This document shows, piece after piece, positions 4,125 through 38,535 of a stretch of DNA of 64,000 nt (its first letter is position 1; every line of letters begins with the position of its first letter). The translations under genes were made by a program, and so were the position numbers. Under the pieces are notes generated by a model that was not told where the DNA came from, made no database searches, and saw nothing but the letters and a program-made list of their open reading frames with translations. The stretch is from NCBI GenBank assembly GCA_963814875.1, contig CAWFFJ010000018.1, forward strand, positions 333,611 through 397,610, in the 5' to 3' direction. Source of the DNA: an uncultured Acidobacteriota bacterium (GTDB lineage Bacteria; Acidobacteriota; Thermoanaerobaculia; Thermoanaerobaculales; Sulfomarinibacteraceae).

Positions 4125-4125
4125 C

Positions 4126-12898: not shown

Positions 12899-14437
12899 TC
12901 AGCCCGCGGTCCCATGTCGCTTGGCGCTGCCGGGTAGAAAGACCGAGAACGTGGTTCCCTCGCCGACCTCGCTCGCGACCGTGATCCGTCCGCCGTGCCG
13001 CTCGACGATCCCGAAACTGACCGCAAGGCCGAGGCCGGTGCCGTGGCCCGGTTCCTTGGTCGTAAAGAAGGGATCGAAGACCTTGTCGAGATCCTCCGGA
13101 GGGATGCCGATGCCGGTGTCGGCGACATCGACGCGCACGCCGCCCTCCTCATCCCGAACCGCCCGGACCGTGAGCGTCCCGCCCTCCGGCATTGCCTGGA
13201 CGGCGTTCAGCAGGAGGTTGAGGAACACCTGCTGGAGGTGCCTCGGGTTGGCCGGCACCGGCGGCAGATCGTCGTCGATCTCACGCTCGAGCTCGACCTG
13301 ACCGATCGCGAGCTCGTTGCCGAGCAGGTTGAGCGTGGTCTCCAGCACCTCTCCCACGGCGACCGACGTCATCACCGGATGGTCGTTGCGCGTGAAGTCG
13401 AGCAGGCTGCGAACGGTCGCGCTGGCGCGTTCCACCTGCGCGTAGATCTCGTTGAGCATCGTCAGCTTGGTCTCGTCGGAGTAGTCCTCGAAGCTCTCGA
13501 TCAACGACTCGGTGGTGAGCCCGATGTTGTTGAGCGGGTTGTTCAGCTCGTGGGCCACTCCCGACGTCAAGGTCCCGACCGCCGCCATCTTGCCGGCCTG
13601 CAGCAGCTGCTCCTGGCGGCTCTTCAGCTCCTGGAGCATCTGGTTGACCGCGACCGCCAGCTCCGAGAACTCGTCGCGGAACCTGCGCGCCGGCCGCACC
13701 GGCGAGTAATCGCCGGCACCGATTCTGGAGGCGTAGGCCACGAACCGACCCAGGGGCGCCACCACCGCGTGGGACATGAGTGCGGCCAGGAATCCCATCA
13801 CCACGACCATGATCAGAAGGAACGCAACCGCCACCACCATGGAGGTGCGCAACATCGCGTGCATCGAGAGGCGCTGGCGATCGACCATGTCCTCCGCCTC
13901 GGAGAGGATGCGTGAACCCGCCGTTCGCAACTGGGTCTCGATCGATCGGTACTCGGCGCTGTGCCGGTCGCCGTCCGGCCCCATCGAGGCGTCGAGCGTG
14001 TACAGCAGGTCCTGGTAGGCAGCCAGGTCCGCTTCGATGGCACTGAACCGTTCGTCACCCATCACCGACCTGAGCTCGTCGGCACTTTTCTCGAACTCGC
14101 TCTGCGCGGTGTGGATGTTGGCCAGGGCGTCCGTCAGGTTGGTCCCATAGAGGAAGAAGTTCTTCTCGAACCGGCGCGCCTGCTCGATCTCGAACAGGGA
14201 GTTCCCGGCTTTCTCGAGGAACTGCAGGTTCTTGGCGACGCCGGAGACGAAGACGACCGCCGCCACCGTAATCGCGGCCATGAACACGAACAGGAGGACG
14301 AAACCCGCCACAATCCGCGACCGAATGCTGATCCGAGGCCGCTCGAGGATCGCCCGCGTCGTCTCGACATCCTCATCCGAGAGGCGAAGCGCCTTCGCCT
14401 GGGCGACATCGTCGGACCGCATCCCGTTCTCGGTCAT
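12899..14437 (-). CDS. sensor histidine kinase (paralog of 2499..4124): 2 TM, helical sensor, HAMP, HisKA, HATPase_c
   Basis: [57 protein letters not shown]. Shares the sensor motif EQARRFEKNFFLYGTNLTDA with the other kinase ([19 protein letters not shown]). Start ATG 14437 chosen; the ORF opens at 14617. Confidence 0.85.
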   Translation of the reverse strand: MTENGMRSDDVAQAKALRLSDEDVETTRAILERPRISIRSRIVAGFVLLFVFMAAITVAAVVFVSGVAKNLQFLEKAGNSLFEIEQARRFEKNFFLYGTNLTDALANIHTAQSEFEKSADELRSVMGDERFSAIEADLAAYQDLLYTLDASMGPDGDRHSAEYRSIETQLRTAGSRILSEAEDMVDRQRLSMHAMLRTSMVVAVAFLLIMVVVMGFLAALMSHAVVAPLGRFVAYASRIGAGDYSPVRPARRFRDEFSELAVAVNQMLQELKSRQEQLLQAGKMAAVGTLTSGVAHELNNPLNNIGLTTESLIESFEDYSDETKLTMLNEIYAQVERASATVRSLLDFTRNDHPVMTSVAVGEVLETTLNLLGNELAIGQVELEREIDDDLPPVPANPRHLQQVFLNLLLNAVQAMPEGGTLTVRAVRDEEGGVRVDVADTGIGIPPEDLDKVFDPFFTTKEPGHGTGLGLAVSFGIVERHGGRITVASEVGEGTTFSVFLPGSAKRHGTAG

Positions 14438-14880
14438 CGCCGTCCGTCCCGTCGAAGCACTCCGTTCCGAGCCCGCATTCCCCAGCACATCACGTCGCGA
14501 GGGCGTTGAGATGGAAGTTCTGTGCCAGCGTGAGAATGCCGCCGCAAGTCCTTTCCGCCGTCGGACAGCCCCGTGGCAACGCAGTCGCAGTCCTCGTACG
14601 TAACGGTGCGGTAACACCCAGGGCTACACTGCAGTCCTCTTCGTGACGCACGCATCTCCGGCTCTCGTCCTGGTCCTGCTGCCGAGGCCCGCCCTCTGCG
14701 GCTGAGCAGCCGGCCGGACCTGGATCCAGGCCAACCGCGCGCAGCCCGACTTCGAGGCACGGGCGTCTCGAATCTGAGGCGGCGTCGGACCCACAGGGAT
14801 GAACCGATTCTCAGCCCACGCGCTGGCCATCGAATTGGGGACCTGCACAAGTGAACCGGGAGCAAACCCAGCTCACAAGC

Positions 14881-15273
14881 TCAGGTGGACGGCGCCTCCG
14901 CCGCCAGATCCTCTGCGGCCCGCGCAACGATCGCACGCAGGTCCTCGGGCCGGAAGGGCTTCGCAATGAAGTCGAAGGCACCCTTCAGCATCGCCTCCCG
15001 GGCGACCGACATCATGGCGTAGCCAGTGATCAGGATGACTCTGGTCCGCGGCGATCGCTCCCGGACCCGCTCGAGCACCTGAATGCCGGTCATTTCATCC
15101 ATCCGGATGTCAGTGACCACGACATCGAAATCAGTCTCGGCAAGCCGGTCGAGGGCGCGTCGCGGATCCTCGAAAATCTCGACCTCCCAGCCCATCTTGG
15201 CAAGCGCCGGCTTCAGTCGCTTGCCGACGATCGGCTCGTCATCGAGAACCAGAACCCGCAGAGCATCAGTCAT
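14881..15273 (-). CDS. response regulator, receiver domain only (close paralog of 4126..4533)
   Basis: VLVLDDEPIVGKRLKPAL, VVTDIRMDEMTG, ILITGYAM, AKPFR. GGGGAGG RBS precedes ATG 15273. Confidence 0.9.
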   Translation of the reverse strand: MTDALRVLVLDDEPIVGKRLKPALAKMGWEVEIFEDPRRALDRLAETDFDVVVTDIRMDEMTGIQVLERVRERSPRTRVILITGYAMMSVAREAMLKGAFDFIAKPFRPEDLRAIVARAAEDLAAEAPST

Positions 15274-23458: not shown

Positions 23459-23782
23459 TCACCGGGGCCTGTTGTCGGACCCTCGGGCCTCCGAGCCCGC
23501 CTCTTCTCGCTCGATCACGAGGGCATTGTCGCCGTCGCCGGGGCACCCGGCGGCATGGGTCGCACGGACCTGCCGATAACCCTCGGGCACCGGCGAGACC
23601 GCGCACACCAGCTCCCGTTCGCCCGGTCGCTTGACCACCCACCCGTTCTGGTCTCCGCCTGAGCAGGCCGCCGAGTGGCACTCGGCGACGATCACCCAAC
23701 CCTCCGGCACCTTGGACGCCTTGCACACGACGCGGTGCTTGTGCGCCCGCCCGGTCACGCCACACCTCGCCGACGGCGCCAC
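23459..23782 (-). CDS. small Cys-rich hypothetical protein with an internal tandem ~40-aa repeat
   Basis: The two repeat units align: VVCKASKVPEGWVIVAECHSAACSGGDQNGWVVKR and LVCAVSPVPEGYRQVRATHAAGCPGDGDNALVIER. The start overlaps the upstream gene end by 28 nt. No family recognised. Confidence 0.45.
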   Translation of the reverse strand: MAPSARCGVTGRAHKHRVVCKASKVPEGWVIVAECHSAACSGGDQNGWVVKRPGERELVCAVSPVPEGYRQVRATHAAGCPGDGDNALVIEREEAGSEARGSDNRPR

Positions 23783-24729
23783 ATCCGCTCGAGCTCGTCG
23801 ACCATGTCGATGTCGGCGCGGATGCCGTTGACCTGGTTGATCTGGACGATCGTCGTCGGGCTGGTGACGTTGACCTCGGTCAAGTGCTCGCCAATAAAGT
23901 CGAGACCGATGAGGTAGATGCCGATCTGGTTGAGCTCGGCGGCGACGGTGCGGCAGGCGTCGAGCTGGCGTGGCGTGGGATCAAGCCTGGCCGCCGTCGC
24001 CCCCTGGTGCAGGTTGGCGAGGCGGGAGCCCGATCGCGGAACCCGCAGCACCGAGCCGAGAACGCGGTCGTTGAGGGTCAGGATGCGGAGGTCGCCGGTC
24101 GACTCGATCGCCTTCAGGTAGGGTTGGACGATGACCTCCGGGCCCCACTCGCGCCAGAAAACCTCGAGCTGCTCGCGCGGCGCATCGGGCGGGACGAAGG
24201 TGATGCCGATACCACAGTAGGTCCCTTTGGGCTTCAGCACCGCCTCGCCCGGCTGCTGCCGGACCGCGTTCTCGAGCTCTTCCGCCGACGCGCAGATCCA
24301 GGTCGGCGCGGCGTACTCCGGCCAGCGTAGGGCAAGGGTGTGCTCGGAGAGCTCGTAGGTGGCGGGCGGCCGGTTGACCTGAACGACATGCTCCGGAGCG
24401 TGCACGAAATGGCGGTGGTGGCGGACGTAGGTCGCGTCGACCGGAGGGTCCTTGCGCTGCAGGACGACGTGGTACTCGGCCACGTCCGCGGTACGCGCCG
24501 GTCCGAGCTCCCAGAACGGCATCGCGCTCGCGTCCGCGTGGACCACCTGCCGGACCGGTAGGGTGTCCAGGTAGCGATCGGTCGGCAGCTCCGCGTCGTG
24601 GGAGAGCAGGTCGAGGTAGTCGACGTGGAAGCCCCTGGCGAGCAGCTCACGGCTCACGCACACCGCGAGGTCGAACGTAGGGTTGAGGGTGTCCACGGGA
24701 TCGGCAACGAGGAGGTATCGGCTGCTCAT
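23755..24729 (-). CDS. gshB: glutathione synthetase-type ATP-grasp ligase (GshB-like)
   Basis: N-domain YLLVADPVDTLNPTFDLAVCVSRELLARG; ATP-grasp core LKPKGTYCGIGI, GDLRILTLN; end EVNVTSPTTIVQINQVNG. Start ATG 24729. Confidence 0.75.
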   Translation of the reverse strand: MSSRYLLVADPVDTLNPTFDLAVCVSRELLARGFHVDYLDLLSHDAELPTDRYLDTLPVRQVVHADASAMPFWELGPARTADVAEYHVVLQRKDPPVDATYVRHHRHFVHAPEHVVQVNRPPATYELSEHTLALRWPEYAAPTWICASAEELENAVRQQPGEAVLKPKGTYCGIGITFVPPDAPREQLEVFWREWGPEVIVQPYLKAIESTGDLRILTLNDRVLGSVLRVPRSGSRLANLHQGATAARLDPTPRQLDACRTVAAELNQIGIYLIGLDFIGEHLTEVNVTSPTTIVQINQVNGIRADIDMVDELERMWRRRRGVA

Positions 24730-24785
24730 CGCAGTCCCCAACATCGACCCTCGCCCACTGCTTCCCACCAGGAATCCGAGCAGGA

Positions 24786-24923
24786 TTCACCACAGAGGCA
24801 CAGAGGCACAGAGAGGAGCACGGAGCCCGCCTCCCGTCGCTTCTTCTCGCGGCATGTCCGGCGCGCGCTGCGCCGGCCATGCCGCGAGGGGAGGGCGGGT
24901 GGCCTCTGTGCCTCTGTGGTTCA
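24786..24923. repeat. palindromic intergenic element, CACAGAGG-type (about 138 bp)
   Basis: The left arm TTCACCACAGAGGCACAGAGGCACAGAGAGG pairs with the right arm CCTCTGTGCCTCTGTGGTTCA (18-nt perfect complement ACCACAGAGGCACAGAGG). Inner arms also pair: CTCGCGGCATG/CATGCCGCGAG and CCGGCGC/GCGCCGG. Confidence 0.85.
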
Positions 24924-25694
24924 CTCTGTCCGTCGGTGGACGTTGACCGCGGAGGCCTGCGCGCTCGGCAGCAGCACCATCTCGCGCACGTTGACGTGAG
25001 CGGGCAGGCTCGCGCAGTACAGCACCGCCTCTGCGACGTCCTCTGCTCGAAGCGGCTCGATCCCGCGGTAGACGGTTGCCGCACGATCGTCGTCGCCATG
25101 GAAGCGGACGACCGAGAACTCGGTCTCGACCAGGCCGGGATCGATCGAGCTGACCCGGACGCCGGTGCCGAGCGTGTCGATTGCAATTGAGCGGGTCAGG
25201 GCCGTGACTGCGTGCTTGGTGGCGCAGTAGACGTTGCCGCCCGGGTAGACCTCGTGGCCCGCGATCGAGCCGATCATGATCAGGTGTCCCCGTCCACGCG
25301 CCACCATCCCGGGAAGCAGCGCACGGGTGACGTAGAGCAACCCTTTGACGTTGGTGTCGACCATCTCGTCCCAGTCGTTGGGATCGCCGTCTTGGAGCGG
25401 CGACAGGCCGCGCGCGAGGCCCGCGTTGTTGACCAGCACCTCGACTTCGCCCCATGGCCCTTCAAGGCTCGCCGCCCACTCGGCGACGGCAGCCTGGTCA
25501 CGCACATCGAGAGCGCTCGCGAGAACCTCGGTTCCGTGGCGCTCGGCCAGAGTTCGAGCGAGAGTCTCGACCCGATCGAGTCTGCGCGCGGCAAGCACCA
25601 GACGCGCTCCGCGACCGGCGAAAGCAGCCGCGCAGGCCGCGCCGATTCCGGCGGAGGCTCCGGTGACGACAACTGTCCGACCGGTGAAGTCCAT
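24921..25694 (-). CDS. SDR family NAD(P)-dependent oxidoreductase (YdfG-like)
   Basis: TVVVTGASAGIG, NNAG, active site YCATKHAV. The stop codon lies inside the right arm of a palindromic repeat. Confidence 0.9.
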   Translation of the reverse strand: MDFTGRTVVVTGASAGIGAACAAAFAGRGARLVLAARRLDRVETLARTLAERHGTEVLASALDVRDQAAVAEWAASLEGPWGEVEVLVNNAGLARGLSPLQDGDPNDWDEMVDTNVKGLLYVTRALLPGMVARGRGHLIMIGSIAGHEVYPGGNVYCATKHAVTALTRSIAIDTLGTGVRVSSIDPGLVETEFSVVRFHGDDDRAATVYRGIEPLRAEDVAEAVLYCASLPAHVNVREMVLLPSAQASAVNVHRRTE

Positions 25695-25771
25695 GGCGTG
25701 CTCCTCCCAGAGCCTGAACCCGTCAGGCGGCTCGGAACGATAGCACGCCAGCGAGCCTCGTGAAGAACGTC

Positions 25772-27169
25772 CTAGGCGCCCTCGACAACAAACTCCTCGT
25801 CGCGCTCAGCGGCCTGTCGCTGCCATTCGGGCAGCCAGACGCCGTGTGCCATCGCCCTCAGCTGAGGCTCAAAGAAGAACTCGCGCTCGCCGAAGGCAGG
25901 CTCGAGATCGGTCAACCACCGTGCCTGGGCGTCGAAACGGGCGAAGAAGAGCCGGTTGACCCAGGACTGGTCCCGCCCCTGGATCATCTTCAGCGCGAAG
26001 ACCTTCTCGCCACCCACCTCGGCGATGCCTTCGATCAGCACCTTGCCTGGAGTCGCCGACATCGACGGTCCGCGCACCGTCCTACCCAGGCCGGAGACGC
26101 TGCCCACGGCTTCCGAGAAGATCCGGTAGGCGCGAGCGAGGGGGACCTCGAAGTAGTGCTTCGGTCCGGTGTCCCGCTCGACGAACATGTAGTACGGGAC
26201 CATCCCGAGGCGGACCTCGCTCCGCCACAGGTCGGCCCAGACATCGGCGGCGTCGTTCACGTGCCGGATCAAAGGCGCCTGGCAGCGAATCACAGCGCCT
26301 GTCGCCGTGATCCGCCGGATCGCCTCCTGCACCGCTGCGGTCTCGAGCTCACGCGGATGACTGAAGTGCGCCATGAGAGCAAGCTGGCGGCCGCTCGCGA
26401 CGACCCTCTCGAACAGGCGCAGCAGGTCGTCCGAGTCGGCATCGCTTGTGAAGCGGTACGGCCAGTAGGCCAGAGCCTTCGACCCAAGACGGATCGAAAC
26501 CAGGCGGTCTAGGCGTGGGTCGAGCAGGGCCTCGAAATACCGCTCCAGCACGCTGGTCTTCATGATCAGGGGGTCACCCCCCGTGAACAGCACGTCGCTC
26601 ACCTCGGAATGGCGCTGCAGGTATGCGATGAGCGTGTCCACCTCGCTGTTCGCGAAGCGAAGCTCATCGACCCCGACGAACTGCGCCCAGCGGAAGCAGT
26701 AGGTACAGAAGGCGTGGCAGGTCTGCCCCTGCGATGGAAAGAAGAGCACTGTTTCGCGGTACTTGTGCTGGCAGCCCGGCACCGGTTCTCCGTCGAGAGA
26801 GGGTACGTTGAGCTGCATCTGGCCTGCCGGATGGGGGTTCATCCGCGCCTGGACCCGACGCGCAGCGAAGTGAATCTCCTCCTTGGTGGCACCGGAGGCC
26901 ACCAGATCCTGCATGTGCCGTAGCTCCAGCGGCTCGAGCATTCCCGGCTGCGGGAAGGTGAGCTGGAAGATCGGGTCGCTCGGAATATCGTCCCAGTCGA
27001 TCAGCTCGCTCACGACGTAATCGTTGACGCGAAACGGGAGCACTGCCGAGACCGCCTCGAGGGCGACCCGCTGATCTCCGTTCAACCGCTCGAGCTGCGG
27101 AATACGATCCAGCTGTGCGCGCCCGACGGCGCGATACCGACGCGGGGCAGAAGCGAGAGCTCCGTCCAT
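25772..27169 (-). CDS. KamA-family radical SAM aminomutase (lysine 2,3-aminomutase-like)
   Basis: Cluster motif CHAFCTYCFR (CX3CX2C), DVLFTGGDPL, MAHFSHPRE, VPYYMFVERDTGPKHYF, SATPGKV. AAAGGAGGG RBS precedes ATG 27169. Confidence 0.85.
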   Translation of the reverse strand: MDGALASAPRRYRAVGRAQLDRIPQLERLNGDQRVALEAVSAVLPFRVNDYVVSELIDWDDIPSDPIFQLTFPQPGMLEPLELRHMQDLVASGATKEEIHFAARRVQARMNPHPAGQMQLNVPSLDGEPVPGCQHKYRETVLFFPSQGQTCHAFCTYCFRWAQFVGVDELRFANSEVDTLIAYLQRHSEVSDVLFTGGDPLIMKTSVLERYFEALLDPRLDRLVSIRLGSKALAYWPYRFTSDADSDDLLRLFERVVASGRQLALMAHFSHPRELETAAVQEAIRRITATGAVIRCQAPLIRHVNDAADVWADLWRSEVRLGMVPYYMFVERDTGPKHYFEVPLARAYRIFSEAVGSVSGLGRTVRGPSMSATPGKVLIEGIAEVGGEKVFALKMIQGRDQSWVNRLFFARFDAQARWLTDLEPAFGEREFFFEPQLRAMAHGVWLPEWQRQAAERDEEFVVEGA

Positions 27170-27293
27170 CCCACCCTCCTTTCTCTCGTTCCATCCGGTT
27201 TATCTGAGATGCTTCGTGTACGAAGCTTCTGCACAGCGCCCGGCGTTCTGAGGAAGGCAAGAATCGCGCGCTTCTCCGGGCGGCTTCATGTTA

Positions 27294-27322
27294 AATATAG
27301 CTGACAGAGAGCCCGGCGACAA
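27294..27322 (-). promoter_or_regulatory. candidate sigma-70-type promoter for the KamA-family gene
   Basis: The minus strand reads TTGTCG-17 nt-TATATT inside a locally AT-rich island, about 125 nt upstream of ATG 27169 and just downstream of the preceding terminator hairpin. Confidence 0.4.
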
Positions 27323-27387
27323 CCCCTCGAGGCACCACGAGACTGAGTAACGACGGCCATAGCACCTCGTGGACAGAGGCCGACGAA

Positions 27388-27413
27388 AATGCCGCCGACT
27401 CGGCGGCGGCATT
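27388..27413 (-). terminator. intrinsic-terminator-like hairpin after the sigma-54-controlled gene
   Basis: 10-bp GC-rich stem AATGCCGCCG / CGGCGGCATT with a 6-nt loop, followed on the minus strand by TTCG (a run of four T when the stem end is counted). About 60 nt after the stop at 27475. Confidence 0.55.
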
Positions 27414-27474
27414 CTCGTCCGGTCCATTGAACGGTCATGGCCTGCGGCACAGAGTTCGCCGCAGCCTGGGGAAA

Positions 27475-28245
27475 CTACTCGCGCGGAGCGGGCGGAGCAG
27501 GAGGTGCCGATGGGGCCGGCGGCAAGGGCGCGGCCGGCGGTGCGGCGATGCGCAGCACCTTCACGTGCGGCACGGCGGTCCGCTCCATCACCCGGCCGCA
27601 CACCGGACATAGGTAGCTCTCCTGGGTCGCCTTGTCACGGTCCATCCGGAGCACGGTGCCGTCGGCCGGACAACGGTAGGTCACACTGTCGGAGAGAATG
27701 AAATCGGCCTCGGGCGCGATCATGGCCGCATCTGAGGAATTGCCATTCCCGACGAACACCATCACGGTGTCCTCTCCGGCCTCATCGGGCATGGCGCTCT
27801 CGATCCGGATCTCGACCGGCTCGCCGTCCGCCTCACCGTCGCCTGCCATGACCCATTTCATGGCGACCTGGTGCTGGTGGGCGCCCTCAACCGAGCGCTC
27901 GCTCTCCTGCCGACTCTCGATCCACACCCGCTTCCCGCCCCCCGAGGCCGACTCGAAACGGAGTGCCTTTGCCGCGACCCTTTCACCGTCGAGGGTCACG
28001 TCGAGGCTGTCGCCGTGGCGCGTGATCACGACTTCGTGCGGGCCAACGGCGATCGTCCTCGCCTCGCCCTCGCCGAGGTCGGAGAGCCTCACGGTTTGAC
28101 TGTCGCCGCCGACGATCACCGTGACCCTGCCGTGCGACGAACTGCTGGGATCCGGCCCGGCGGGCTCCGCCAGAGCCACCGCCAGACCGCTCAACGCCAC
28201 CAGCACGGCCGCCAGCACCCAGTGCAACCAGGATCTCTCTTTCAT
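27475..28245 (-). CDS. secreted or membrane-anchored hypothetical protein with a C-terminal zinc-ribbon and Pro-rich tail
   Basis: Signal/anchor MKERSWLHWVLAAVLVALSGLAVALA. Acidic and His-containing middle (EGAHQHQVAMKW). YRCPADGTVL..SYLCPVCGRVMER, then the tail PPAAPLPPAPSAPPAPPAP. AAGGAGG RBS 6 nt before ATG 28245. Sigma-54 promoter upstream. Confidence 0.7.
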   Translation of the reverse strand: MKERSWLHWVLAAVLVALSGLAVALAEPAGPDPSSSSHGRVTVIVGGDSQTVRLSDLGEGEARTIAVGPHEVVITRHGDSLDVTLDGERVAAKALRFESASGGGKRVWIESRQESERSVEGAHQHQVAMKWVMAGDGEADGEPVEIRIESAMPDEAGEDTVMVFVGNGNSSDAAMIAPEADFILSDSVTYRCPADGTVLRMDRDKATQESYLCPVCGRVMERTAVPHVKVLRIAAPPAAPLPPAPSAPPAPPAPRE

Positions 28246-28306
28246 CGCATCCTCCTTGTTGAGCGCCGCAGATCGGAAACGTCGTGCGGCCTCGACAGGG
28301 TCAATG

Positions 28307-28321
28307 GCAAAGGCCGTGCCA
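28307..28321 (-). promoter_or_regulatory. sigma-54 (RpoN) -24/-12 promoter
   Basis: The minus strand reads CTGGCACGGCCTTTGCCAT. This is an exact match to TGGCACG-N4-TTGC with correct GG/GC spacing. It lies 62 nt upstream of ATG 28245 and directly downstream of the sigma-54-dependent activator gene. Confidence 0.8.
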
Positions 28322-28492
28322 GCCGATCGATGGAGATCGGCCATCCCTCGAAACATTGTGTGTTCAGTCTGATCTGCCTTTGAACCGATACGACGCCCGC
28401 GCCGAGCCTCGCCGGCCGAATCTGTTGCCTCCCCACATGGGGACACCATCTCCCCAAAGGAGGAGGTGAATGCACCGCGCCGGAAGGATCCC

Positions 28493-29872
28493 CTACCGGG
28501 TGTATTGCTCGTCAAGCCCAAACTTGGCCAGCCGATACAAGAATGTCTTGTAGCTCAGGCCGAGCAGGCGGGCCGCGCTGGCACGGTTGCCGTCGGCGAG
28601 CTCCAGAGCCTGCCGCAGCAGGTCCTCCTCCATCTCGTCCCAAGCAACCCCCGATGGCGGCAGATGGAATGTTCCCCTTCCGGACGAGGTGGCCGCCCCG
28701 ATCTCGGGTGGCAGGTCGTCGGCGCTCACTCGGCCGTCCTCGGCGAGCAGCACCAGCCGTTCGAGGGCATTGGCGAGCTCCCGCACGTTGCCCGGCCAGG
28801 TGTGCTCCATCAGCCGACGCAGCACCGCCTGCGGCAGTTGCTGGGCGACGGTGGCATGGCGCTCGGCGGCCCGACGGACGAGCACATTGGCCAGAGCAGG
28901 AATGTCCTCCCGGCGCTCACGTAGAGGTGGGAGCCGAACCGGGAACACGTTGAGTCGATAGTAGAGATCCTCGCGGAAGCTACCCTCCGCCACCATGTCC
29001 GCAAGGTCCCGGTTGGTCGCGGCCACAACCCGCGCGTCACAGGCGACCTCGCCGGTACCACCGAGACGGGTCACCCGTCGCTCCTGGAGGGCGCGCAGGA
29101 CCTTCGCCTGGAGGGCAAGCGGCATCGATGCCACCTCGTCGAGGAAGAGGGTCCCTCCCGACGCCTCCTCGAACTTGCCCTCACGGCGTCGGTGGGCCCC
29201 GGTGAACGCGCCGCGCTCGTGGCCGAACAGCTCGCTCTCCATCAGCGACTCGGGAATCGCGGCGCAGTTCACGGCGACGAAGGGACCGCCGCTGCGCCGG
29301 CTGCGGCGGTGGAGCATTCTCGCGACCAGCTCCTTGCCGGTCCCGGACTCACCCGTCACCAGCACCGTCGCCTCGGTGTCGGCGACCTTTTCGAGCGTCC
29401 GATAGAGCTGCTGCATGGCCGGAGTGCGACCAATGATCTCGCCGTAGCCGTCCCTGACCTCGGCCTCCGCGCGCAGACGCAGGTTTTCCCGCTCGAGCTC
29501 CCGGGTCCGCAACACCCTCTGCACGGCGAGCAGGAGCGCCTCGCGTTCGAACGGCTTCGCCAGGTAGTCGGCAGCTCCACGCCGCACCGCCTCGACTGCG
29601 TGCGCGATCGAGCCATAAGCGGTCATCACGATCACCGCGGATGGAATACCTCGCCCTCGCAGCTCGTCGAGCAGGTCGCCGCCCGTGCGGCCCGGTAGTC
29701 TCCAGTCGCTCAGCACCACGTCAGGAAAATCATCCTCGATCGCAGTCAGGGCAGCGTCGACATCCGGCGCGCTGCGCACGTCGTAGCCACTGCGGGTGAG
29801 GATCCCGGCAATCAGCTCGCGCTGTGCTGCCTCGTCCTCCACGACCAGCACCGTGGCGGGAGGGGTGCTCAT
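28493..29872 (-). CDS. sigma-54-dependent response regulator (NtrC/ZraR/AtoC class: REC, AAA+, Fis-type HTH)
   Basis: VLVVEDEA, LSDWRLPG, Walker A GESGTGKE, sigma-54 contact loop ERGAFTGA, C-terminal NRASAARLLGLSYKTFLYRL. Confidence 0.95.
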   Translation of the reverse strand: MSTPPATVLVVEDEAAQRELIAGILTRSGYDVRSAPDVDAALTAIEDDFPDVVLSDWRLPGRTGGDLLDELRGRGIPSAVIVMTAYGSIAHAVEAVRRGAADYLAKPFEREALLLAVQRVLRTRELERENLRLRAEAEVRDGYGEIIGRTPAMQQLYRTLEKVADTEATVLVTGESGTGKELVARMLHRRSRRSGGPFVAVNCAAIPESLMESELFGHERGAFTGAHRRREGKFEEASGGTLFLDEVASMPLALQAKVLRALQERRVTRLGGTGEVACDARVVAATNRDLADMVAEGSFREDLYYRLNVFPVRLPPLRERREDIPALANVLVRRAAERHATVAQQLPQAVLRRLMEHTWPGNVRELANALERLVLLAEDGRVSADDLPPEIGAATSSGRGTFHLPPSGVAWDEMEEDLLRQALELADGNRASAARLLGLSYKTFLYRLAKFGLDEQYTR

Positions 29873-31374
29873 GACGGGGAGTCCTTGCCGGGGGGCACCA
29901 ACGGCAGCCGGAGCAGCGCCCGCGTGCCTCCGCCTTCGACATCGTCGATCTCGAGCTCGCCACCATGCATTCCGACCACCAGGGCCCTGGCAAGGTACAG
30001 GCCCATCCCCGACCCCTCCGGGCGAGTGCTGACGTGCGGCGAATAGAGGCGCTCTCGGATCTCGGCGGGCAGACCGCGCCCCCAGTCGCGGACCTCGATC
30101 TCCGCCCTCGAGCGGACCCGTCGAACAGCGATCGTGACCGGTTTGCCCGAGGGCGAGGCCTGGACCGCGTTTTCCACCAGGTTGGCGAGCGCGGCACGGA
30201 CCGCAGCGGGAACCACGTCTGCGACGACTGGTTCAGCGACCAGCTCGACCTCCGCACCGCCCTGGACAGCCTCCAGGACCACCGAGTGGGCCAGCTCGGC
30301 GAGATCGACAGCCTCGACGTCACCGGCCTCGCCCGCGCCGACGGCCAGGAACGAACGCAGCCACCTGTCGATGCGGCGGATCTGGGTCCGAGCCATCGCC
30401 ACCAGCTGCCCGTCGCCCGGGTTCCATCCGGCGAGCTCCTCGACCGCAAGTCCGAGTGTGTTCAGTGGGTTGCGGACGGTATGAGCAAGACCGCGCGCGA
30501 GGTCCCCGAGCTGCGCCAGGTGCTCCCGATCACGCCATGCCGCGCGCTCCTGCTCGAGCTGGGCGAGACGCAGCGACATCCTGTTGAAGGCACGCTGCAG
30601 CTCCCCTACCTCGCCACCCGCATCCTCCGGGACCTGGACGCCGAGTGCGCCCTGGCCGAGCAACTCTGCCTCCGCCGCCAGACGTCCCAGCGGAGCGGCG
30701 ACCCGTCGGGCCATGACCCCGGAGGCGACCAGGCCGACCGCAAGCACTCCGAGGCTGAACAACATGCCCTCGCGCAGGTTGGCCTGGGCGAGGCGCACGG
30801 TAGGCGCGAGCGGGATCGGAACCCTACGAACGAAGCCCGGGTCTGCGGTCACCACGAGCACCCCTTGCGATCCGCCCTGGTCCTCGGCGACGTGGAAGCT
30901 GAACTGCTGGACGACCCGCGTTCGGGTGTGGGCGTCCGGTGCCGCGGGGGCAACCGGGTGCTCGGCGCCCGTGTCATCGCTCTCCGCCAGGACCCACGCG
31001 AAGGCCGGCTGCGCCGGGGGTGCCAGCTCGGCCGGCGGTTGCGCCGGTGCCGGTCGGCTCGGCTCCCCGGGCCCCGCGGGCGGCTCCCGCTCGACTGTCT
31101 TCAGGAGGTGCTCGGCCCTCGTGATGACCACGGAGTGGTTCACGTCGGTCCGGATGCCGTCCTGCATGACCTCGCTGCGCACATTAACCTCGCCCGGAGG
31201 CAGCATGATGACGCGCGGTTCCGGACCGAGCAGGTCGCGGCCGACGCTGGTCGCGACCGCGCCGACCGCGGCCGGCAGGGCGACGAGCTGACGCATGTGG
31301 AGCCACCACTGCGCCGCCATCACGGCGAGCACGAGCGCCGATGTGCCGAGGAAGAAGCGAGTCTGCAGACGCAT
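29869..31374 (-). CDS. sensor histidine kinase with a large periplasmic domain, HAMP, HisKA and HATPase_c
   Basis: H-box LARGLAHTVRNPLN, N box NLVENAVQA, DWGRGL, GSGMGLYLA. 4-nt overlap with the downstream regulator. Start ATG 31374 after GGAGG; the ORF opens at 31410. Confidence 0.9.
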   Translation of the reverse strand: MRLQTRFFLGTSALVLAVMAAQWWLHMRQLVALPAAVGAVATSVGRDLLGPEPRVIMLPPGEVNVRSEVMQDGIRTDVNHSVVITRAEHLLKTVEREPPAGPGEPSRPAPAQPPAELAPPAQPAFAWVLAESDDTGAEHPVAPAAPDAHTRTRVVQQFSFHVAEDQGGSQGVLVVTADPGFVRRVPIPLAPTVRLAQANLREGMLFSLGVLAVGLVASGVMARRVAAPLGRLAAEAELLGQGALGVQVPEDAGGEVGELQRAFNRMSLRLAQLEQERAAWRDREHLAQLGDLARGLAHTVRNPLNTLGLAVEELAGWNPGDGQLVAMARTQIRRIDRWLRSFLAVGAGEAGDVEAVDLAELAHSVVLEAVQGGAEVELVAEPVVADVVPAAVRAALANLVENAVQASPSGKPVTIAVRRVRSRAEIEVRDWGRGLPAEIRERLYSPHVSTRPEGSGMGLYLARALVVGMHGGELEIDDVEGGGTRALLRLPLVPPGKDSPS

Positions 31375-31496
31375 CAGGACCTCCGGAGCCGCCGGCGTGG
31401 AGGGCGCCACGCCGGCCGGCTCGTGTCTACAGTAGCAACCGCCATGCCACCTGGTGCGATGCTATTCTTCTCGTCCCGAATGCTGCGGGAGGCGAC

Positions 31497-33446
31497 GTGT
31501 CCGAGACCTACTACATCACGACCCCGATCTACTACGTCAACGACCTGCCCCACATCGGGCACATCTACACCACCGTCATGGCCGACGTCCTGGCTCGGTA
31601 CCAGCGGATGAACGGTCGGCGGGTACACTTCCTGACCGGGACCGACGAGCACGGACAGAAGATCGAGAAGGCCGCGCGGGCTCAGGGAGTCCAACCGATC
31701 GAGCTCGCCGATCGGGTCGTCGCGAGATATCACGAGCTGTGGAAGGTGCTCGACATCTCGCACGACGACTTCATCCGCACCACCGAGCCGCGCCACCAGA
31801 AGGCGGTGGCAGCGATGATCCGCCGCTTCGCCGCCGCTGGCGACCTCTACAAGGGTGCGTACGAGGGCTGGTACTGCGCCGGCGCGGAGGCGTTCGTGCC
31901 CGACTCACAGGTCAAGGACGGCCGCGACCTGGAGTCCGGGTACCCGGTCGAGCGCTTGGCCGAGTCGAGCTGGTTCTTCCGGCTGTCGGCCTATCAGGAG
32001 CGACTGCTCGAGTGGTATCGCAACAACCCCGAGTGCATCCGGCCTGCGAGCCGGTACAACGAGGTGGTCAGCTTCGTCGAAGGCGGTCTCAAGGACCTCT
32101 CGATCTCACGCACCTCGATCCGCTGGGGGGTGCCCTGGCCGGGCGACCCCGAACATGTCGTCTACGTGTGGCTCGACGCCTTGACCAACTACGTCTCCGC
32201 CCTCGGGTTCGGCGGCGAAGACGACGAGCTCTACCAGACCCACTGGCCCGCCTCCCTCCACCTCGTCGGCAAGGACATCCTCCGCTTCCACTGCGTGTAC
32301 TGGCCGGCCTTCCTGATGTCCGCAGGAATGCCTCTGCCCCGCCAGGTCTTCGGCCACGGGTGGTGGACCAAGGACGACGCCAAGATGTCCAAGTCGCTGG
32401 GCAACGTCGTCCGGCCCGACTACCTGGTCGACCGTTTCGGTGCCGACGTCGTGCGTTACTTTCTTGTCCGGGACATGACCTTCGGCCAGGACAGCTCGTT
32501 CTCCGACGCGGCCTTCCTCGAGCGCTTCAACGCCGACCTCGCGAACGCCCTCGGCAACGCGGCGTCGCGAACGCTCGCGCTGGTCCGCCGCAATCTCGAC
32601 GGCCGCGTCCCCGAGCCGATCGGCGACGGCCCGCTCCCGGCCGCGGCGGACGATGCGGTGCGCCAGTATCGTCGACACATGGATGCCCTCGAGCCCCAGC
32701 GCGCCCTGGAGGCTGCGTGGCGGCTGCTCGCCACTCTCGACGGCTTCATCCAGGAACGTCAACCGTGGGCTCTTGCACGCCAGGGTGACGCTGGCCGGGC
32801 ACGCCTCGAGGCCACACTCGCAGACTCCCTCGAGGCGCTCCGCATCACCTCGGTGCTGCTCGAACCCATCATGCCCCGCACCTGTGCAGAGCTGCGGCGA
32901 CAGCTCGGGGCCGAGGGGCTCCCTGTCAATCTTCGGACCGGCGCCGAGTGGGGTCTGCTCGGGCACGGCGCCACCGTCGGCGAAGGCGGTCCATTGTTCC
33001 CGAGGGTCGACATCGCCATAACCCTGAAGGAGCTGGCCATGCGTGACGAGACGACCTCCCCACCAACTTCCACCGCGGCCACCGACGCACCTGCGGCGTC
33101 GCCCACCGCCCCCACCGGGGAGCTCTTGTCCATCGATCGTTTCGCCGAGGTCCAGTTGGTCATCGGCGTCGTCCGCGAGGCCGAGCGCGTGCCCAAGTCG
33201 AAGAAGCTCGTCCGGCTGATGGTCGATCTGGGCGAGCCGGAGCTGCGTCAGATCGTCGCCGGCATCGCCGAGCGCTACGAGCCCGACAGCCTCGTCGGCC
33301 GTCGGATCGTGGTGGTGGCGAACCTGCAGCCCGCGAAACTCATGGGGGTGGAGTCGCGCGGCATGCTGCTGGCCGCCTCGGTGAACGGCGATCCCTACCT
33401 GCTGTCGCCGGACGGAGAGGTTGCGCCGGGGACCCGCGTCAAGTAG
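31497..33446 (+). CDS. metG: methionine--tRNA ligase with a C-terminal tRNA-binding (Trbp111/EMAP-like) domain
   Basis: YYITTPIYYVNDLPHIGH (HIGH), KMSKS present, C-terminal VGVVREAERVPKSKKLVRLMVDLG. GTG 31497 follows GGGAGG; the upstream ORF extension from 31341 was rejected. Confidence 0.95.
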   Translation: MSETYYITTPIYYVNDLPHIGHIYTTVMADVLARYQRMNGRRVHFLTGTDEHGQKIEKAARAQGVQPIELADRVVARYHELWKVLDISHDDFIRTTEPRHQKAVAAMIRRFAAAGDLYKGAYEGWYCAGAEAFVPDSQVKDGRDLESGYPVERLAESSWFFRLSAYQERLLEWYRNNPECIRPASRYNEVVSFVEGGLKDLSISRTSIRWGVPWPGDPEHVVYVWLDALTNYVSALGFGGEDDELYQTHWPASLHLVGKDILRFHCVYWPAFLMSAGMPLPRQVFGHGWWTKDDAKMSKSLGNVVRPDYLVDRFGADVVRYFLVRDMTFGQDSSFSDAAFLERFNADLANALGNAASRTLALVRRNLDGRVPEPIGDGPLPAAADDAVRQYRRHMDALEPQRALEAAWRLLATLDGFIQERQPWALARQGDAGRARLEATLADSLEALRITSVLLEPIMPRTCAELRRQLGAEGLPVNLRTGAEWGLLGHGATVGEGGPLFPRVDIAITLKELAMRDETTSPPTSTAATDAPAASPTAPTGELLSIDRFAEVQLVIGVVREAERVPKSKKLVRLMVDLGEPELRQIVAGIAERYEPDSLVGRRIVVVANLQPAKLMGVESRGMLLAASVNGDPYLLSPDGEVAPGTRVK

Positions 33447-33648
33447 CAGCGCGCACGCCACAGCCCCGGGGAGCGTCTTCAGTCACTCCAGCTGAGGGCG
33501 GCGGGCTGTGCCGTGCGCGCTGCTTCGGATCGGCTGCGCCGATCCCGGAGGGGAACACCTGAAGGACATCGAACCCCTGCCAACTCGTGGGACCTGTCGT
33601 GTCCTGTCGAGAGCGCCGAGCGGCTGGCGGTCGACCTCTACGGGGCTG

Positions 33649-34167
33649 TCAAGGGGCGACGCCCTTCGGGCGCCCGCTGGACCTTCGCCGCTCCCAGACC
33701 TCGAAGGTCGACGGGAGGTCGTTGCGCTCGTCGGCCGGCTGGTCGTTCGCACCGACCCTGCGCCACGCCGGCCAGGGGACGTCGGGGAAGTGGGTGTCGC
33801 CGTCGACCGCGGCGTGCACCCTGGTGAGGTACATCCGGTCGGCAAACGGCAGCGCGAGCCGATAGATCTCCGCACCGCCGGCGACGAAGACCTCGACGTC
33901 GTCCCGTGCCGCGTCGAGGGCATCCGGCAGTGAGCCGACCACCAGTACGTCGCCGGCAAGCGGGCCGAGGGTCTTCGAGACCACCACCACAGTCCGCCCG
34001 GGAAGCGGTCGGGCGAAGGACTCCCAGGTTCTTCGACCCACCACCACGTGATGGCCCATGGTCAGAGCCTTGAAGCGCTTGAGGTCGGCCGAGAGCCGCC
34101 ACGGCAGACCTCCATCGCGCCCGATGACGCTGTTGGAGGCCACGGCGGCGATGATCGAGACCGTCAC
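33649..34167 (-). CDS. folA: dihydrofolate reductase
   Basis: IIAAVASNSVIGRDGGLPWRLSADLKRFKALTMGHHVVVGRRTWESF. GTG start 10 nt after the thyA stop. Confidence 0.9.
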   Translation of the reverse strand: MTVSIIAAVASNSVIGRDGGLPWRLSADLKRFKALTMGHHVVVGRRTWESFARPLPGRTVVVVSKTLGPLAGDVLVVGSLPDALDAARDDVEVFVAGGAEIYRLALPFADRMYLTRVHAAVDGDTHFPDVPWPAWRRVGANDQPADERNDLPSTFEVWERRRSSGRPKGVAP

Positions 34168-34177
34168 GGCGCGCTTC

Positions 34178-34972
34178 TCAGACCGCCACCGGGGCTTTGA
34201 TGTGAGGGTGCGGGTCGTAGCCCTCGAGTGAGAAGTCCTCCCAGGCGAAACCGTCGATCGTGCGTACCTCCGGGTTGAGGCGGAGCCGCGGGAGCGCCCG
34301 CGCCTCGCGCCCGAGCTGGAGACGCGCCTGATCGACGTGATTGAGGTAGAGGTGGACGTCGCCGAAGGTGTGGATGAACTCGTGCGGCTCGAGCTCGGTG
34401 ACCTGGGCGATCATCATCGTCAGCGCCGCATACGAGGCGATGTTGAAGGGAACTCCGAGAAAGACGTCCGCCGAACGCTGGTAGAGCTGGCAGGACAGGC
34501 GCCCGTCCGCGACGTAGAGCTGGAACAGGACGTGGCACGGCGGCAGGGCCATCCGCGGCAGCTCCGCCACGTTCCAGGCGCTGACGAGATGGCGGCGCGA
34601 TTCCGGTTTGCGCCGGATTCCCTCCACGAGTGCCGCGATCTGGTCCACCCGGCTACCGTCCACGGACTGCCACCGCCGCCACTGTGCGCCGTAGATCGGG
34701 CCCAGGTCTCCGTCCGGTCCAGCCCACTCGTCCCAGATGGTCACGCCGTGCTCGTGCAGCCACGCGACGTTTGTGTCGCCGCGCAGAAACCACAGCAACT
34801 CGTGCACGATCGAACGCAGGTGCAGCTTCTTGGTGGTGAGCAGGGGGAAGCCGTCCCCGAGGTCGATGCGCATCTGGTGACCGAAAACGCTGAGAGTACC
34901 GGTACCGGTGCGGTCGCTCTTGCGGGTTCCCTGATTGAGAATGCGCTCGAGCAGGTCGAGGTACTGGCGCAT
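34178..34972 (-). CDS. thyA: thymidylate synthase (ThyA)
   Basis: [22 protein letters not shown], active site LPPCH, 264 aa, canonical end. Confidence 0.95.
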
Positions 34973-35535
34973 CAGGTGTGCTCCTCTGATGCCGTCAGCC
35001 AGCGCCCGACCCCGTCCTGCCAGCGCCCTTGTGCTTTGAGAACAAGCTCGGCAATCTCACGGACCGCTCCGTGGCCCCCCGGGCTCCTGCACACCAGGTG
35101 GCAGGTCGCCGCGACCTCTGGTACGGCATCGGACGGGCAGGCAGAGAACCCAACCCGCTGCAGGACCGGAACATCAGGGAGATCGTCGCCCATGGCTGCG
35201 ACCTGGCGATCCTCGAGCGCGAGCTGCTGCTCGAGCGCCTCGAGGTCGGCGCTCTTGTCGCCGCTTCCGAGCACCACCAGCTCGCGCGAAATCCCCAGCT
35301 CCCGGCACCGGACCGCCACTGCTTCGCTGCGTCGCCCGGACAGGATGGCGATCTCGATCCCCGCGTCAAGCAGGAGCCGGATGCCGAGTCCATCGCGAAC
35401 CGAGAACTGCTTGCTCTCCTCGCCTCGTGACGTGTAAACGAGTGTGCCATCGGTGAGCACGCCGTCGACGTCGAGCACGAGCAAACGGATCGGCTCGAGG
35501 CGCGCACGCAGCTCCGCTGGAAGGTGGCTGGGCAT
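34972..35535 (-). CDS. kdsC: 3-deoxy-D-manno-octulosonate-8-phosphate phosphatase, HAD family
   Basis: [31 protein letters not shown]. Its TGA shares one nt with the thyA ATG (TGATG). Start ATG 35535. Confidence 0.85.
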
Positions 35536-35570
35536 GCCCGGGATACTACCAGAGGCAGAAACGCACGTGA

Positions 35571-35981
35571 GTGAACCACAGAAGACAGGACCACCAAGAC
35601 ACGAAGACACCAAGCGATCGCAGGGACGTGGCAGCGGTCACGAGGGCCCCGGCGGCTGCCTCAAGCAGCCGCCCCTGGCGGGAGGAGCGGAGGGACGAGA
35701 GAGGGGCTCTTTCATCCGCCCGCTCCTCCCGTCAGGGCCGCGCGCCGTGCGCGCGGCGGGCCTCCGGGTTCGGCTTGAGTTCTCCCCCATCGCGTGCCCC
35801 CCTGATGGAGCCCCCCTCGAGCCGCAATTGGGAACGCGCTCCAGCCCTTGAACGTCCTCTTGGTGTCTTGGTGCCTTGGTGGTGAGAATCCGCATCGACC
35901 GAAAACCACCCACCCGGGGCCACCACATCACCACCCTTGGCTTGCGGCCAAAGCCTGCGATGGGTCTCTGTGCCTCTGTGG
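35571..35981. repeat. composite or nested palindromic elements filling the lptE-kdsC spacer
   Basis: Outer pair: GTGAACCACAGAAGACAGG (35571) and CTCTGTGCCTCTGTGG (35966). Inner pair: GACCACCAAGACACGAAGACACCAAGC (35589-35615) and TCTTGGTGTCTTGGTGCCTTGGTGGTG (35858-35884), about 24/26 complementary. Internal GC hairpins CGGGAGGAGCGG/CCGCTCCTCCCG. Confidence 0.8.
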
Positions 35982-35986
35982 TCTTC

Positions 35987-36511
35987 CTAGAACCCTTCGA
36001 GCACGGCGCTGACCAGGGCGCGGGCGAACTCGACCGAGACATCGTCCATGGCCGCGACCTGTCGGTCGAAGTAATCGACCGCCGACACGTCGACCTGGTA
36101 CGAGGTCCGGCGGGAGAAGGCCTTGTCCTCCCACAGGACCTTCGGCTCCTCTCCTCGGATGTCGACCAGTGAGACGCTGGCGGTGAGGGTCATCTGATAC
36201 TCGGTCGCCCGGCCCTGTTCGTCGAGGGTGACTGGGGACACCGAGAGGCTTTTGATCGTCCCCCGGAGCGAAAGGTCGGCACCCTTCTCGTCGTCCACGA
36301 TCGAGAACCGCCGACGGCGAACCCACTCCTGGACAACTGCTTCCGTCAGCCGCTGGTCCATGTCGGCCCAGTCGGTGGTGTTCTCGAACGGCCTCACATG
36401 CAGGGTCTTGAGATCCGGCGGGAGGAAGCTCGAGGTCCCCACCAGGTGATACCCGCATCCCGCCGACATCAGGGCGAGGAAGACCAGCACCGCGCCACGC
36501 CACATCGTCAT
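35987..36511 (-). CDS. lptE: LPS-assembly lipoprotein LptE
   Basis: Lipobox LMSAGCGYHL. GRATEYQMTLTASVSL parallels E. coli LptE GQTAEYQMIMTVNATVL. 174 aa. Confidence 0.8.
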   Translation of the reverse strand: MTMWRGAVLVFLALMSAGCGYHLVGTSSFLPPDLKTLHVRPFENTTDWADMDQRLTEAVVQEWVRRRRFSIVDDEKGADLSLRGTIKSLSVSPVTLDEQGRATEYQMTLTASVSLVDIRGEEPKVLWEDKAFSRRTSYQVDVSAVDYFDRQVAAMDDVSVEFARALVSAVLEGF

Positions 36512-36540
36512 GGCGGCGACGGTAGCACAGGCTGAGGGGC

Positions 36541-36648: not shown

Positions 36649-36660
36649 CTGACTGTTGTT

Positions 36661-38534: not shown

Positions 38535-38535
38535 C

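Follow-up and report, generated by a model that had tools for sequence, protein, structure and literature searches.

Palindromic elements between housekeeping genes

The window, by which we mean the whole 64-kb stretch of DNA analysed here, carries five palindromic elements (E1 to E5), all of them flanked by housekeeping genes. The elements, their parts and their neighbours are as follows:

24786-24923, E1, a 138-bp near-perfect foldback in the gap between the SDR gene (24921-25694, minus strand) and gshB (23755-24729, minus strand)
24786-24814, plus strand, left terminal repeat of E1: TTC-ACCAC, then three 8-mers (CACAGAGG CACAGAGG CACAGAGA)
24901-24923, minus strand, right terminal repeat of E1: TGA-ACCAC, then two 8-mers (CACAGAGG CACAGAGG)
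24846-24888, inner GC-rich hairpin of E1, with 19-nt arms (24846-24864 and 24870-24888) and a 5-nt loop
35572-35982, E2, a compound element approximately 410 bp long in the gap between the LptE gene (35987-36511, minus strand) and a KdsC-like phosphatase gene (34972-35535, minus strand), with outer arms ACCACAGAAGACAGG and ACCACAGAGGCACAGAG
35590-35883, inner element of E2, with arms ACCACCAAGACACGAAGACACCAAG and CTTGGTGTCTTGGTGCCTTGGTGGT and a core hairpin at 35670-35740
36541-36663, E3, a decayed element in the gap between the RarA gene (36661-37971, minus strand) and the LptE gene, with ends TGAACCACAGAAG and, on the other strand, TGAAACAACAGTCAG
42375-42484, E4, a 110-bp foldback in the gap between a class-V aminotransferase (Aminotran_5) gene (stop at 42494) and the CarD gene (41790-42302, minus strand), with arms TGA-ACCTCAAAGAAGCACAGAG and TTC-ACCTCAGAGAAGCACAGAG
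59181-59350, E5, an element approximately 170 bp long, situated between the convergent FabH gene (58108-59166, plus strand) and ACT-domain gene (59357-59884, minus strand), with arms ACCACCAAGACACCAAG and ACCACCAAGACACGAAG

The ends of the elements share a common head, ACC(A/T)C preceded by TTC or TGA, which is followed by tandem 8-nt units. The left end of E1 is an exact match to the cross-phylum consensus TTCACCACAGAGGCACAGAG, and the two ends of this element contain the perfect 19-nt inverted repeat ACCACAGAGGCACAGAGGC (24789-24807 and 24902-24920). A strict regular expression for the family was matched by E1, the inner element of E2 and E5, while the outer element of E2, and likewise E3 and E4, matched the head plus one unit. 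All five elements start 0-15 nt after a stop codon, and the stop codon of RarA (TCA at 36661-36663) lies at the very edge of E3. The genes downstream appear to have promoter-like boxes of their own.

The five loci had been described from the sequence alone as a family of intergenic palindromes, and all five proved to be real, with spans of 110 to approximately 410 bp and with both motifs and folding beyond those of shuffled controls. With up to three mismatches allowed, ACCACCAAGACACCAAG was matched six times in the window compared to 0.05 times expected from dinucleotide shuffling, TGAACCAC six times compared to 1.1, and the regular expression for head plus unit seven times compared to 0.7. 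The folding energies, for which a comparison with shuffled sequence had been suggested, gave z-scores of -8.9 for E1 (minimum free energy -101.7 kcal/mol), -7.6 for E2, -4.0 for E3, -6.8 for E4 and -2.7 for E5. The intergenic placement of all copies was likewise upheld, both by the flanking genes, which were confirmed with Pfam, and by the gene calls in four syntenic relatives, none of which placed a gene in the gaps holding elements. No sixth or later copy was detected within the 64 kb, and the window holds no rRNA or tRNA. Rfam, searched at the gathering threshold for the window and by E-value for E1, E2/E3 and eight foreign loci, returned nothing at the gathering threshold in the window and only sub-threshold matches to miRNA-precursor hairpins.

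An ancestral stop codon next to E1

The TGA of the SDR gene (24921-24923, minus strand) overlaps the outermost triplet (TCA) of the E1 inverted repeat, and the element had been thought to supply this stop codon as well as the last codons of the gene. The orthologous genes speak against both ideas. In relatives, the SDR genes have an identical TGA and encode a matching C-terminus (HRRTE, HRRTD or HRESD), including one locus (L126) in which the gene has the same terminus and is followed by a 96-nt spacer only, without an element. The terminus in the window lies at most one codon from the family-wide end, the wider SDR family stopping 1-3 residues past a conserved HR, and the supposedly repeat-derived ACA GAG differs from the ACC GAG of the orthologs by a synonymous change. 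Donation of the stop codon by E1 was rejected because relatives, one of them element-free, share both the TGA and the C-terminus; E1 instead adjoins an evidently ancestral stop codon.

Turnover of the elements at orthologous sites

Judging by its RarA homologues, the window belongs to the class Thermoanaerobaculia of the Acidobacteriota. It was compared with four relatives that are syntenic around RarA (L120 to L123, with RarA proteins 98, 91, 86 and 78% identical to that of the window, respectively) and with four loci around the SDR gene (L124 to L127). At the site between RarA and LptE, which is occupied by E3, an element was present in all five genomes. Its ends were conserved (the stop codon plus [G/A/T]ACCACAGAG ... 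CTCTGTGGTT[C/G]A) and the interiors were unrelated, the interior of E3 being unrelated even to that of the relative with 98% RarA identity; between E3 and L122, 86% identity was found over 79 nt. At the site between LptE and KdsC, L120 carried an ortholog of E2 (94% identity), whereas L121 carried a 140-bp element with an interior 83% identical to E1, which in the window resides at another locus. The relative with 86% RarA identity retained a decayed remnant at this site, and in L123 the site was empty, with a spacer of 46 nt.

A further E2-type copy (83% identity over 400 nt) was located in L120 between the aminotransferase and CarD genes, the site held by E4 in the window, and units corresponding to the inner element of E2 also occurred separately in L120 and L124. 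The site between the SDR gene and gshB, where E1 lies, was in the relatives occupied by a copy of the E2-inner type, by a different CACAGAG-type copy, by no element (the 96-nt spacer) and by yet another element. The recurrence of E1-type and E2-type units at non-orthologous sites shows that units move or are copied between sites. Units nest beside one another, and they turn over rapidly while the ends persist.

The presence/absence comparison that had been suggested for related genomes thus revealed replaced, decayed or absent elements at four orthologous sites. Together with the homologous units at different loci, this bears out the proposal of a dispersed and mobile REP/MITE-like family.

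Distribution of the arms across phyla

In GTDB representative genomes, the exact 17-mer arm ACCACAGAGGCACAGAG turned up in at least 119 stretches from at least 12 phyla, a count which in itself is no evidence, as approximately 70 matches to a 17-mer are expected by chance in 596 Gb (own calculation). It is the sequence context, and not the number of matches, that makes this distribution informative. Nearly every match listed was followed by further (A/G)CAC(A/G)GAG units, with T-T-[C/A] upstream, and the partner CTCTGTGGT was found downstream in 95 of the 135 matches listed. The matches came from Acidobacteriota, Planctomycetota, Verrucomicrobiota, Cyanobacteria, Myxococcota and Alpha-, Beta- and Gammaproteobacteria, as well as from Bacteroidota, Spirochaetes, Chloroflexota, Gemmatimonadota, Nitrospira, Chlamydiales and one archaeal MAG, and the isolates Sorangium cellulosum So0157-2 and Nostoc sp. 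NIES-4103 were among the carriers. Another 104 stretches with the 17-mer were found in IMG/VR contigs, which are viral by database label. Identical 17-mers from Bacteroidota to Cyanobacteria to Acidobacteriota are the mark of very broad transfer.

The family can be defined by a TTC/TGA-ACC(A/G)C head followed by two to four C(A/G)C-N-(A/G)AG-N 8-mers, present as terminal inverted repeats. The combination of constant architecture and variable arm sequence, pointed out for the window copies in the sequence-only reading, is real and generalises across phyla. The inverted repeat reaches exactly 3 nt beyond ACCAC (TTC...GAA). No target-site duplication was seen at E1 to E5, and among 145 paired elements a 3-nt direct repeat was present in one and a 2-nt repeat in 17, which is near chance. 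Short elements were palindromic over their entire length, with a median interior z-score of -2.3; full-length palindromy is not required by a model with terminal repeats only.

Of the gene pairs flanking the elements, 23 were convergent, 26 co-directional and only two divergent (chi-square approximately 17, own calculation), which places the elements at the 3' ends of genes. This bias is ambiguous, as it fits a function at the 3' end as well as mere tolerance of insertions there.

Association of the arms with GxxExxY genes

Full-length members of the family contain one gene between the arms, which encodes a GxxExxY protein of approximately 125 aa (TIGR04256, E-value 2e-44; Pfam PF13366, PDDEXK_3). 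The ORFs enclosed by longer arm pairs at three of the loci selected by pattern (L064, L110 and L119) all belonged to TIGR04256/PF13366, with a partial match inside the element at a fourth (L089), and across 2.2 Mb of fetched loci GxxExxY was the sole gene family recurrent between arms.

The association was also found in the reverse direction. A sample of 80 metagenomic GxxExxY loci was taken, consisting of the closest relatives of two proteins found inside arms, and a bracketing inverted repeat was present at 58 of the 74 loci with adequate flanks. Nearly all of these repeats were of the family architecture, for example TTCACCACAGAGGCACAGAGACACAGAG, ACCGCAGAGACGCAGAGGACGCAGAG and TTCACCACGGAGACACGGAG. 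The strict regular expression matched both arms in the correct orientation at 45 of 65 GxxExxY loci, compared to only 25 arms elsewhere in the 158 kb. Since the sampled loci are the nearest relatives of arm-enclosed proteins, this bracketing rate of 70-78% may not hold for the family as a whole. The span between paired arms was bimodal, with gene-less elements at 60-300 nt and elements with a GxxExxY gene at 400-650 nt. Extra arms in a contig were of the same CAC/CGC subtype as the resident cassette in all but one of 21 cases (nine contigs; p 0.015 by permutation).

The arrangement can be seen on plasmids of two isolates. In Bacteroides finegoldii, a plasmid has an annotated GxxExxY gene (protein WP_032839887.1) between radA and the gene that follows, flanked by TTCACCACAGAGGACGCAGAGGACACGGAGG and CTCTGTGACCTCTGTGTCCTCTGTGGTGAA. 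On plasmid 1 of Gemmatirosa kalamazoonensis, an apparently frameshifted GxxExxY gene is situated between two complete short hairpins, the ends of which (TGAACCGC...GCGGTTCA) have the TGA head that is also seen in the window.

Gene-less hairpins vastly outnumber the cassettes, with 140 short elements and zero GxxExxY genes in 924 kb of IMG/VR loci. Similarly, neither a GxxExxY gene nor a remnant was detected by tblastn or by hmmsearch (--max, E-value up to 10) in the window or in the syntenic DNA of the four relatives (approximately 60 kb each). Coding remnants of GxxExxY inside the window elements were considered as a candidate and discarded, as hmmsearch gave no match.

The GxxExxY protein as a predicted nuclease

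The GxxExxY family is large, comprising 8,530 clusters at 50% identity with an E-value cutoff of 1e-10 and 23,920 with a cutoff of 1e-3. Its function is listed as unknown for PF13366 in a survey which also reported multiple transfers between divisions (PMC3424549). The PD-(D/E)XK catalytic set (E28, D68 and E78-x-K80) was invariant or nearly so. The structure was predicted with a pLDDT of 96 from a diverse alignment, compared to 50 from a shallow one, and Foldseek searches of the PDB with the model returned weak matches only, the best being Cas4 (SSO0001) and nucleases of the lambda-exonuclease type, with tRNA-splicing nucleases also among them. A sequence search of the PDB gave no solved relative, and the family was absent from the INPHARED phage collection. 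GxxExxY is a minimal predicted PD-(D/E)XK nuclease with conserved catalytic residues.

Among the possible roles named in the sequence-only reading was that of a target for some unspecified transposase. A candidate enzyme can now be put forward, as the same terminal repeats bracket GxxExxY genes, and from this linkage we infer that GxxExxY would be the enzyme moving the elements.

Arms acting as DNA or as RNA

In 52 gene-oriented cassettes, arm mismatches comprised 60 sense-strand G.U and 56 A.C pairs (p 0.78), and transversions were also common. Between E1 and the copy in L121, two pair changes, in the inner hairpin, were compensatory and three pairs were broken, and between E2 and its paralog three changes were compensatory, nine gave G.U pairs and 25 pairs were broken. 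Selection for RNA pairing was rejected on these grounds, with no wobble bias, little covariation and inter-copy substitutions that mostly break pairs. A terminator scan of positions 24000-43000 gave no terminator-like site at E1 to E4, and the tails of these elements (GAATCCTGC, TCACTCACG, TCAGCCCC and TCAAAGGG) contain no T-tract, on which grounds canonical Rho-independent terminators were rejected at these four sites.

The suggestion that the elements act as terminators or mRNA stabilisers therefore found no backing in the sequence, which has neither a U-tract nor a strand-specific wobble bias and shows little covariation. A selected RNA helix is disfavoured because there is no G.U excess, most changed pairs are broken and no terminator signal is present. 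These observations fit arms that serve on DNA, as protein-recognition or homology blocks.

Interpretation of the window elements

E1 and the four other elements are gene-less foldback members of a very widespread bacterial family, the ends of which are those of GxxExxY cassettes. We consider it probable, with considerable room for doubt, that the full explanation includes a GxxExxY nuclease that acts on these arms in trans. The window copies are read as gene-less, REPIN/MITE-like derivatives of such cassettes. The arms would constitute protein-recognition sites and blocks of homology, and not selected RNA helices, and the nuclease would be encoded elsewhere in the genome. Two routes of spread can be envisaged. 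The nuclease may excise and insert the units, or it may introduce breaks, for the repair of which another element with the same arms is copied. The latter route would account for the swapping of interiors at constant sites. The 3' ends of genes would in either case be places that tolerate hairpins, and any terminating or mRNA-stabilising effect would be a by-product.

A more far-reaching idea, which we put forward tentatively and hold to be more doubtful than not, is that GxxExxY proteins are the nucleases of a bacteria-wide 'hairpin-homing' element. Recognition and cutting by the nuclease would take place at the 8-mer arms or at the hairpin or cruciform that they form. Repair from any copy with shared arms could then allow both the nuclease gene and gene-less interiors to hop without target duplication, and short hairpins such as E1 would represent empty or solo sites. 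If correct, this would provide a family of over 8,000 clusters with a function and explain both the near-identical arms across phyla and the swapped interiors at fixed sites.

The arm sequences (TTCACCACAGAGG...) define direct substrates for biochemistry. For annotation, recognition of the elements avoids spurious ORF calls inside them and accounts for the variable intergenic lengths among syntenic genomes. Neither Rfam nor the literature searchable without subscription gave an earlier description of the elements.

Alternative explanations

The elements may be REPIN/MITE-like units moved by a different enzyme, such as a RAYT (IS200-type Y1) or a DDE transposase, with GxxExxY as a passenger or as a gene that inserts into hairpins. 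We regard this as rather unlikely, even if the REPIN-like architecture (inverted ends, a variable spacer, extragenic hairpins and nesting; PMC3116915) is what such units would display, the majority of copies are gene-less, no GxxExxY gene lies near the window copies and the physical linkage is compatible with a passenger that lands in hairpins. Only GxxExxY recurs between arms in the 2.2 Mb, in which no IS200/IS605 TnpA-like ORF was found either (a weak test, with an IS608 TnpA query). The target-site duplication that a DDE-type MITE leaves is missing, and the near-identity of the arms across phyla contrasts with REPs, which are usually lineage-specific. Selection by the host for RNA structure, with the elements as non-canonical terminators or mRNA-protecting 3' stem-loops and their spread as a secondary matter, is unlikely in our view. 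It draws on the strong hairpins, the start of the elements 0-15 nt past stop codons in this lineage, the gene-3' placement across phyla and the promoter-like boxes apparent before downstream genes; against these stand the lack of a T-tract or terminator-like call at E1 to E4, the balanced mismatches of the arms and the mostly pair-breaking substitutions between copies. Such selection would also have to accommodate empty sites and the wholesale replacement of interiors between genomes with 98% RarA identity, and neither arm identity across phyla nor linkage to a nuclease gene would be expected of a terminator.

An element acting at the RNA level, similar to the intervening sequences of rRNA, is very unlikely. 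In such a scheme, RNase III would cut the stem formed by the arms and thereby release or silence the GxxExxY mRNA, with only the stem left in the short forms. Intervening sequences do occur as short stem-loops or as ORF-bearing forms with inverted repeats cut by RNase III, and they are sporadic and horizontally transferred (PMC4990558); here, too, the arms tightly enclose the ORF, with GGAG/GAGG units of the 5' arm just before the start codon. The elements nevertheless lie outside rRNA, the ORF encodes a PD-(D/E)XK nuclease and not a four-helix-bundle S23p protein, the strand-specific wobble signal was not found, and the scheme would account for control of expression but not for spread on the DNA level. 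That the elements are assembly artefacts or chance low-complexity sequence can practically be dismissed, the repetitive nature of the arms being the one point in its favour. Orthologous and paralogous copies were present in four independent assemblies of relatives. The complete genomes of isolates such as Sorangium cellulosum So0157-2, Nostoc sp. NIES-4103, Bacteroides finegoldii and Gemmatirosa likewise contain copies, and the shuffle controls were exceeded.

Comparison with known systems

The reading of the elements as gene-less GxxExxY cassettes can be set against several known systems. Integron attC sites are similar in that they, too, are imperfect palindromes with a constant architecture but variable sequences, lie directly 3' of ORFs and are recognised as structures. 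In the present elements, however, there are no cassette arrays, the neighbours are housekeeping genes and an integrase is absent; attC sites were rejected as an identity, as the ends (TTCACCAC...GTGGTGAA/TCA) lack the RYYYAAC ... GTTRRRY core. Intervening sequences of rRNA share the stem-loops with and without an ORF, the bracketing by inverted repeats, the sporadic occurrence and the horizontal transfer (PMC4990558), and are a second analogue. As an identity they were likewise rejected, since the elements lie between protein-coding genes in a window without rRNA; they occupy 3' spacers of protein genes and not rRNA helices, and the ORF belongs to a family other than S23p.

MITEs such as Correia, Nezha, RUP and ERIC (PMC10969869) resemble the elements in being short, non-coding, intergenic and multi-copy, with terminal inverted repeats and stable hairpins in transcripts. 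Longer relatives with a gene between the same ends are a further likeness, the gene here encoding GxxExxY. Differences are the absence of a target-site duplication, a candidate enzyme outside the known transposase families, and copies in one genome that have their ends in common but often differ in the interior. PD-(D/E)XK homing endonuclease genes, for example that of I-Ssp6803I, exist in free-standing or intron-borne form. Homing of the I-Ssp6803I type has in common with the proposed mechanism a small PD-(D/E)XK nuclease as the sole cargo of a selfish element, as well as a spread by breaking and copying which would require no more than homology in the flanks and does not duplicate the target. 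The flanking homology would here be a dispersed repeat (the arms) and not a unique host gene.

The closest known system is that of REPINs and RAYTs. REPINs are non-autonomous extragenic hairpins with two conserved inverted ends and a less conserved spacer, and the RAYT gene is flanked by the repeats (Bertels & Rainey 2011, PMC3116915). The elements described here are similarly extragenic inverted doublets that form hairpins, are sometimes inserted into or beside one another, are present in many copies per genome and have repeats that flank a single small gene of nuclease type. In contrast to REPINs, their ends consist of tandem 8-mers behind ACC(A/G)C and not of a short REP palindrome, and the sequence of these ends hardly varies from one phylum to the next, REPs being specific to lineages. 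The linked gene encodes a PD-(D/E)XK protein, GxxExxY, and not a Y1 (HUH) transposase, and it belongs to a very large and apparently multi-copy family, while RAYTs have been described as single-copy (PMC3116915). The conserved terminal repeats around GxxExxY genes thus lead to a concrete hypothesis, that of a nuclease-driven mobile element which would resemble the REPIN/RAYT system but employ another class of enzyme.

The 8-mer family in predicted viral and archaeal contigs

Arms of the 8-mer family (a head, ACC(A/T)C, followed by tandem 8-mers) were also found in predicted viral contigs, where 140 short arm pairs were counted in 924 kb (IMG/VR loci L208-L311), with several short copies on a single contig, as in IMGVR_UViG_3300009548_000502. 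No gene for the GxxExxY nuclease, which is bracketed by such arms elsewhere, was present in these 924 kb of predicted viral sequence, nor was one found in isolated phage genomes. Among the GxxExxY-family proteins recovered in the protein-representative search, several of 260-295 aa (P0361-P0368 and others) contained two matched stretches each; they are two-domain proteins in which the nuclease is fused in tandem.

One GTDB-representative stretch (L014) carried a complete element:

L014 1282-1373: 91-nt element with bacterial arm sequence, in contig CAWJYS010000004.1 of a Methanotrichaceae archaeon MAG

The contig is 207 kb long and binned as archaeal; either the element crossed between domains, or the contig was binned wrongly.

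Palindromes outside the 8-mer family

Three further inverted repeats were seen, two in the window and one in a syntenic relative:

61555-61738: palindromic element with perfect 25-nt inverted repeats (GAGTCTGCGGTCCGCAAGGAACCTC / GAGGTTCCTTGCGGACCGCAGACTC) enclosing 134 nt
33445-33524: 22-nt inverted repeat between convergent genes, DHFR and MetRS by the relatives' annotation
L121 18984-19148 (= L125 7078-7242): foldback with perfect 21-nt arms (AGGAGGGTGTAGGGCATAGAT)

The first, whose right end adjoins the stop codon of a VWA-domain gene (61737-63026, minus strand), is distinct from the 8-mer family; it contains no 8-mer arms, and no further copies were found among all fetched loci. The second is 94% conserved at the orthologous position in L120 and L124, two loci from the relatives, and appears to be an ordinary hairpin that was inherited vertically and lies outside the family. 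The third, likewise unrelated to the family, lies directly 3' of the stop of a sigma-54 response-regulator gene.

Duplication in the window and sequence quality of the most distant relative

Several direct-repeat families (D1, 72% over 234 nt, and D3, D5, D7 and D8) link window positions 2500-4540 with 12900-15270, and their common spacing of ~10,350 nt indicates a duplicated gene pair that has since diverged. In the most distant relative, thyA was called as a 59-aa fragment (L123 13255-13434) and the 2-oxoglutarate dehydrogenase genes were called piecemeal (L127 15766-19928), which suggests frameshifts or assembly errors in this long-read MAG.

Conserved boxes upstream of genes

Genes downstream of 8-mer-family elements have a conserved box close 5' of their start codons, also at the orthologous positions in L120-L123, the relatives' loci around RarA, for example:

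~36512-36535, minus: box before LptE, GTGCTACCGTCGCCGCCATG
~35536-35560, minus: box before the KdsC-like gene, CTGGTAGTATCCCGGGCATG
~42303-42345, minus: box before CarD, GTGCTACCATCGATAGG

The LptE and CarD boxes follow the form GTGCTACC(G/A)TCG. The conserved box may be a -10-like box, in which case the leaders of LptE and KdsC may be very short or absent.
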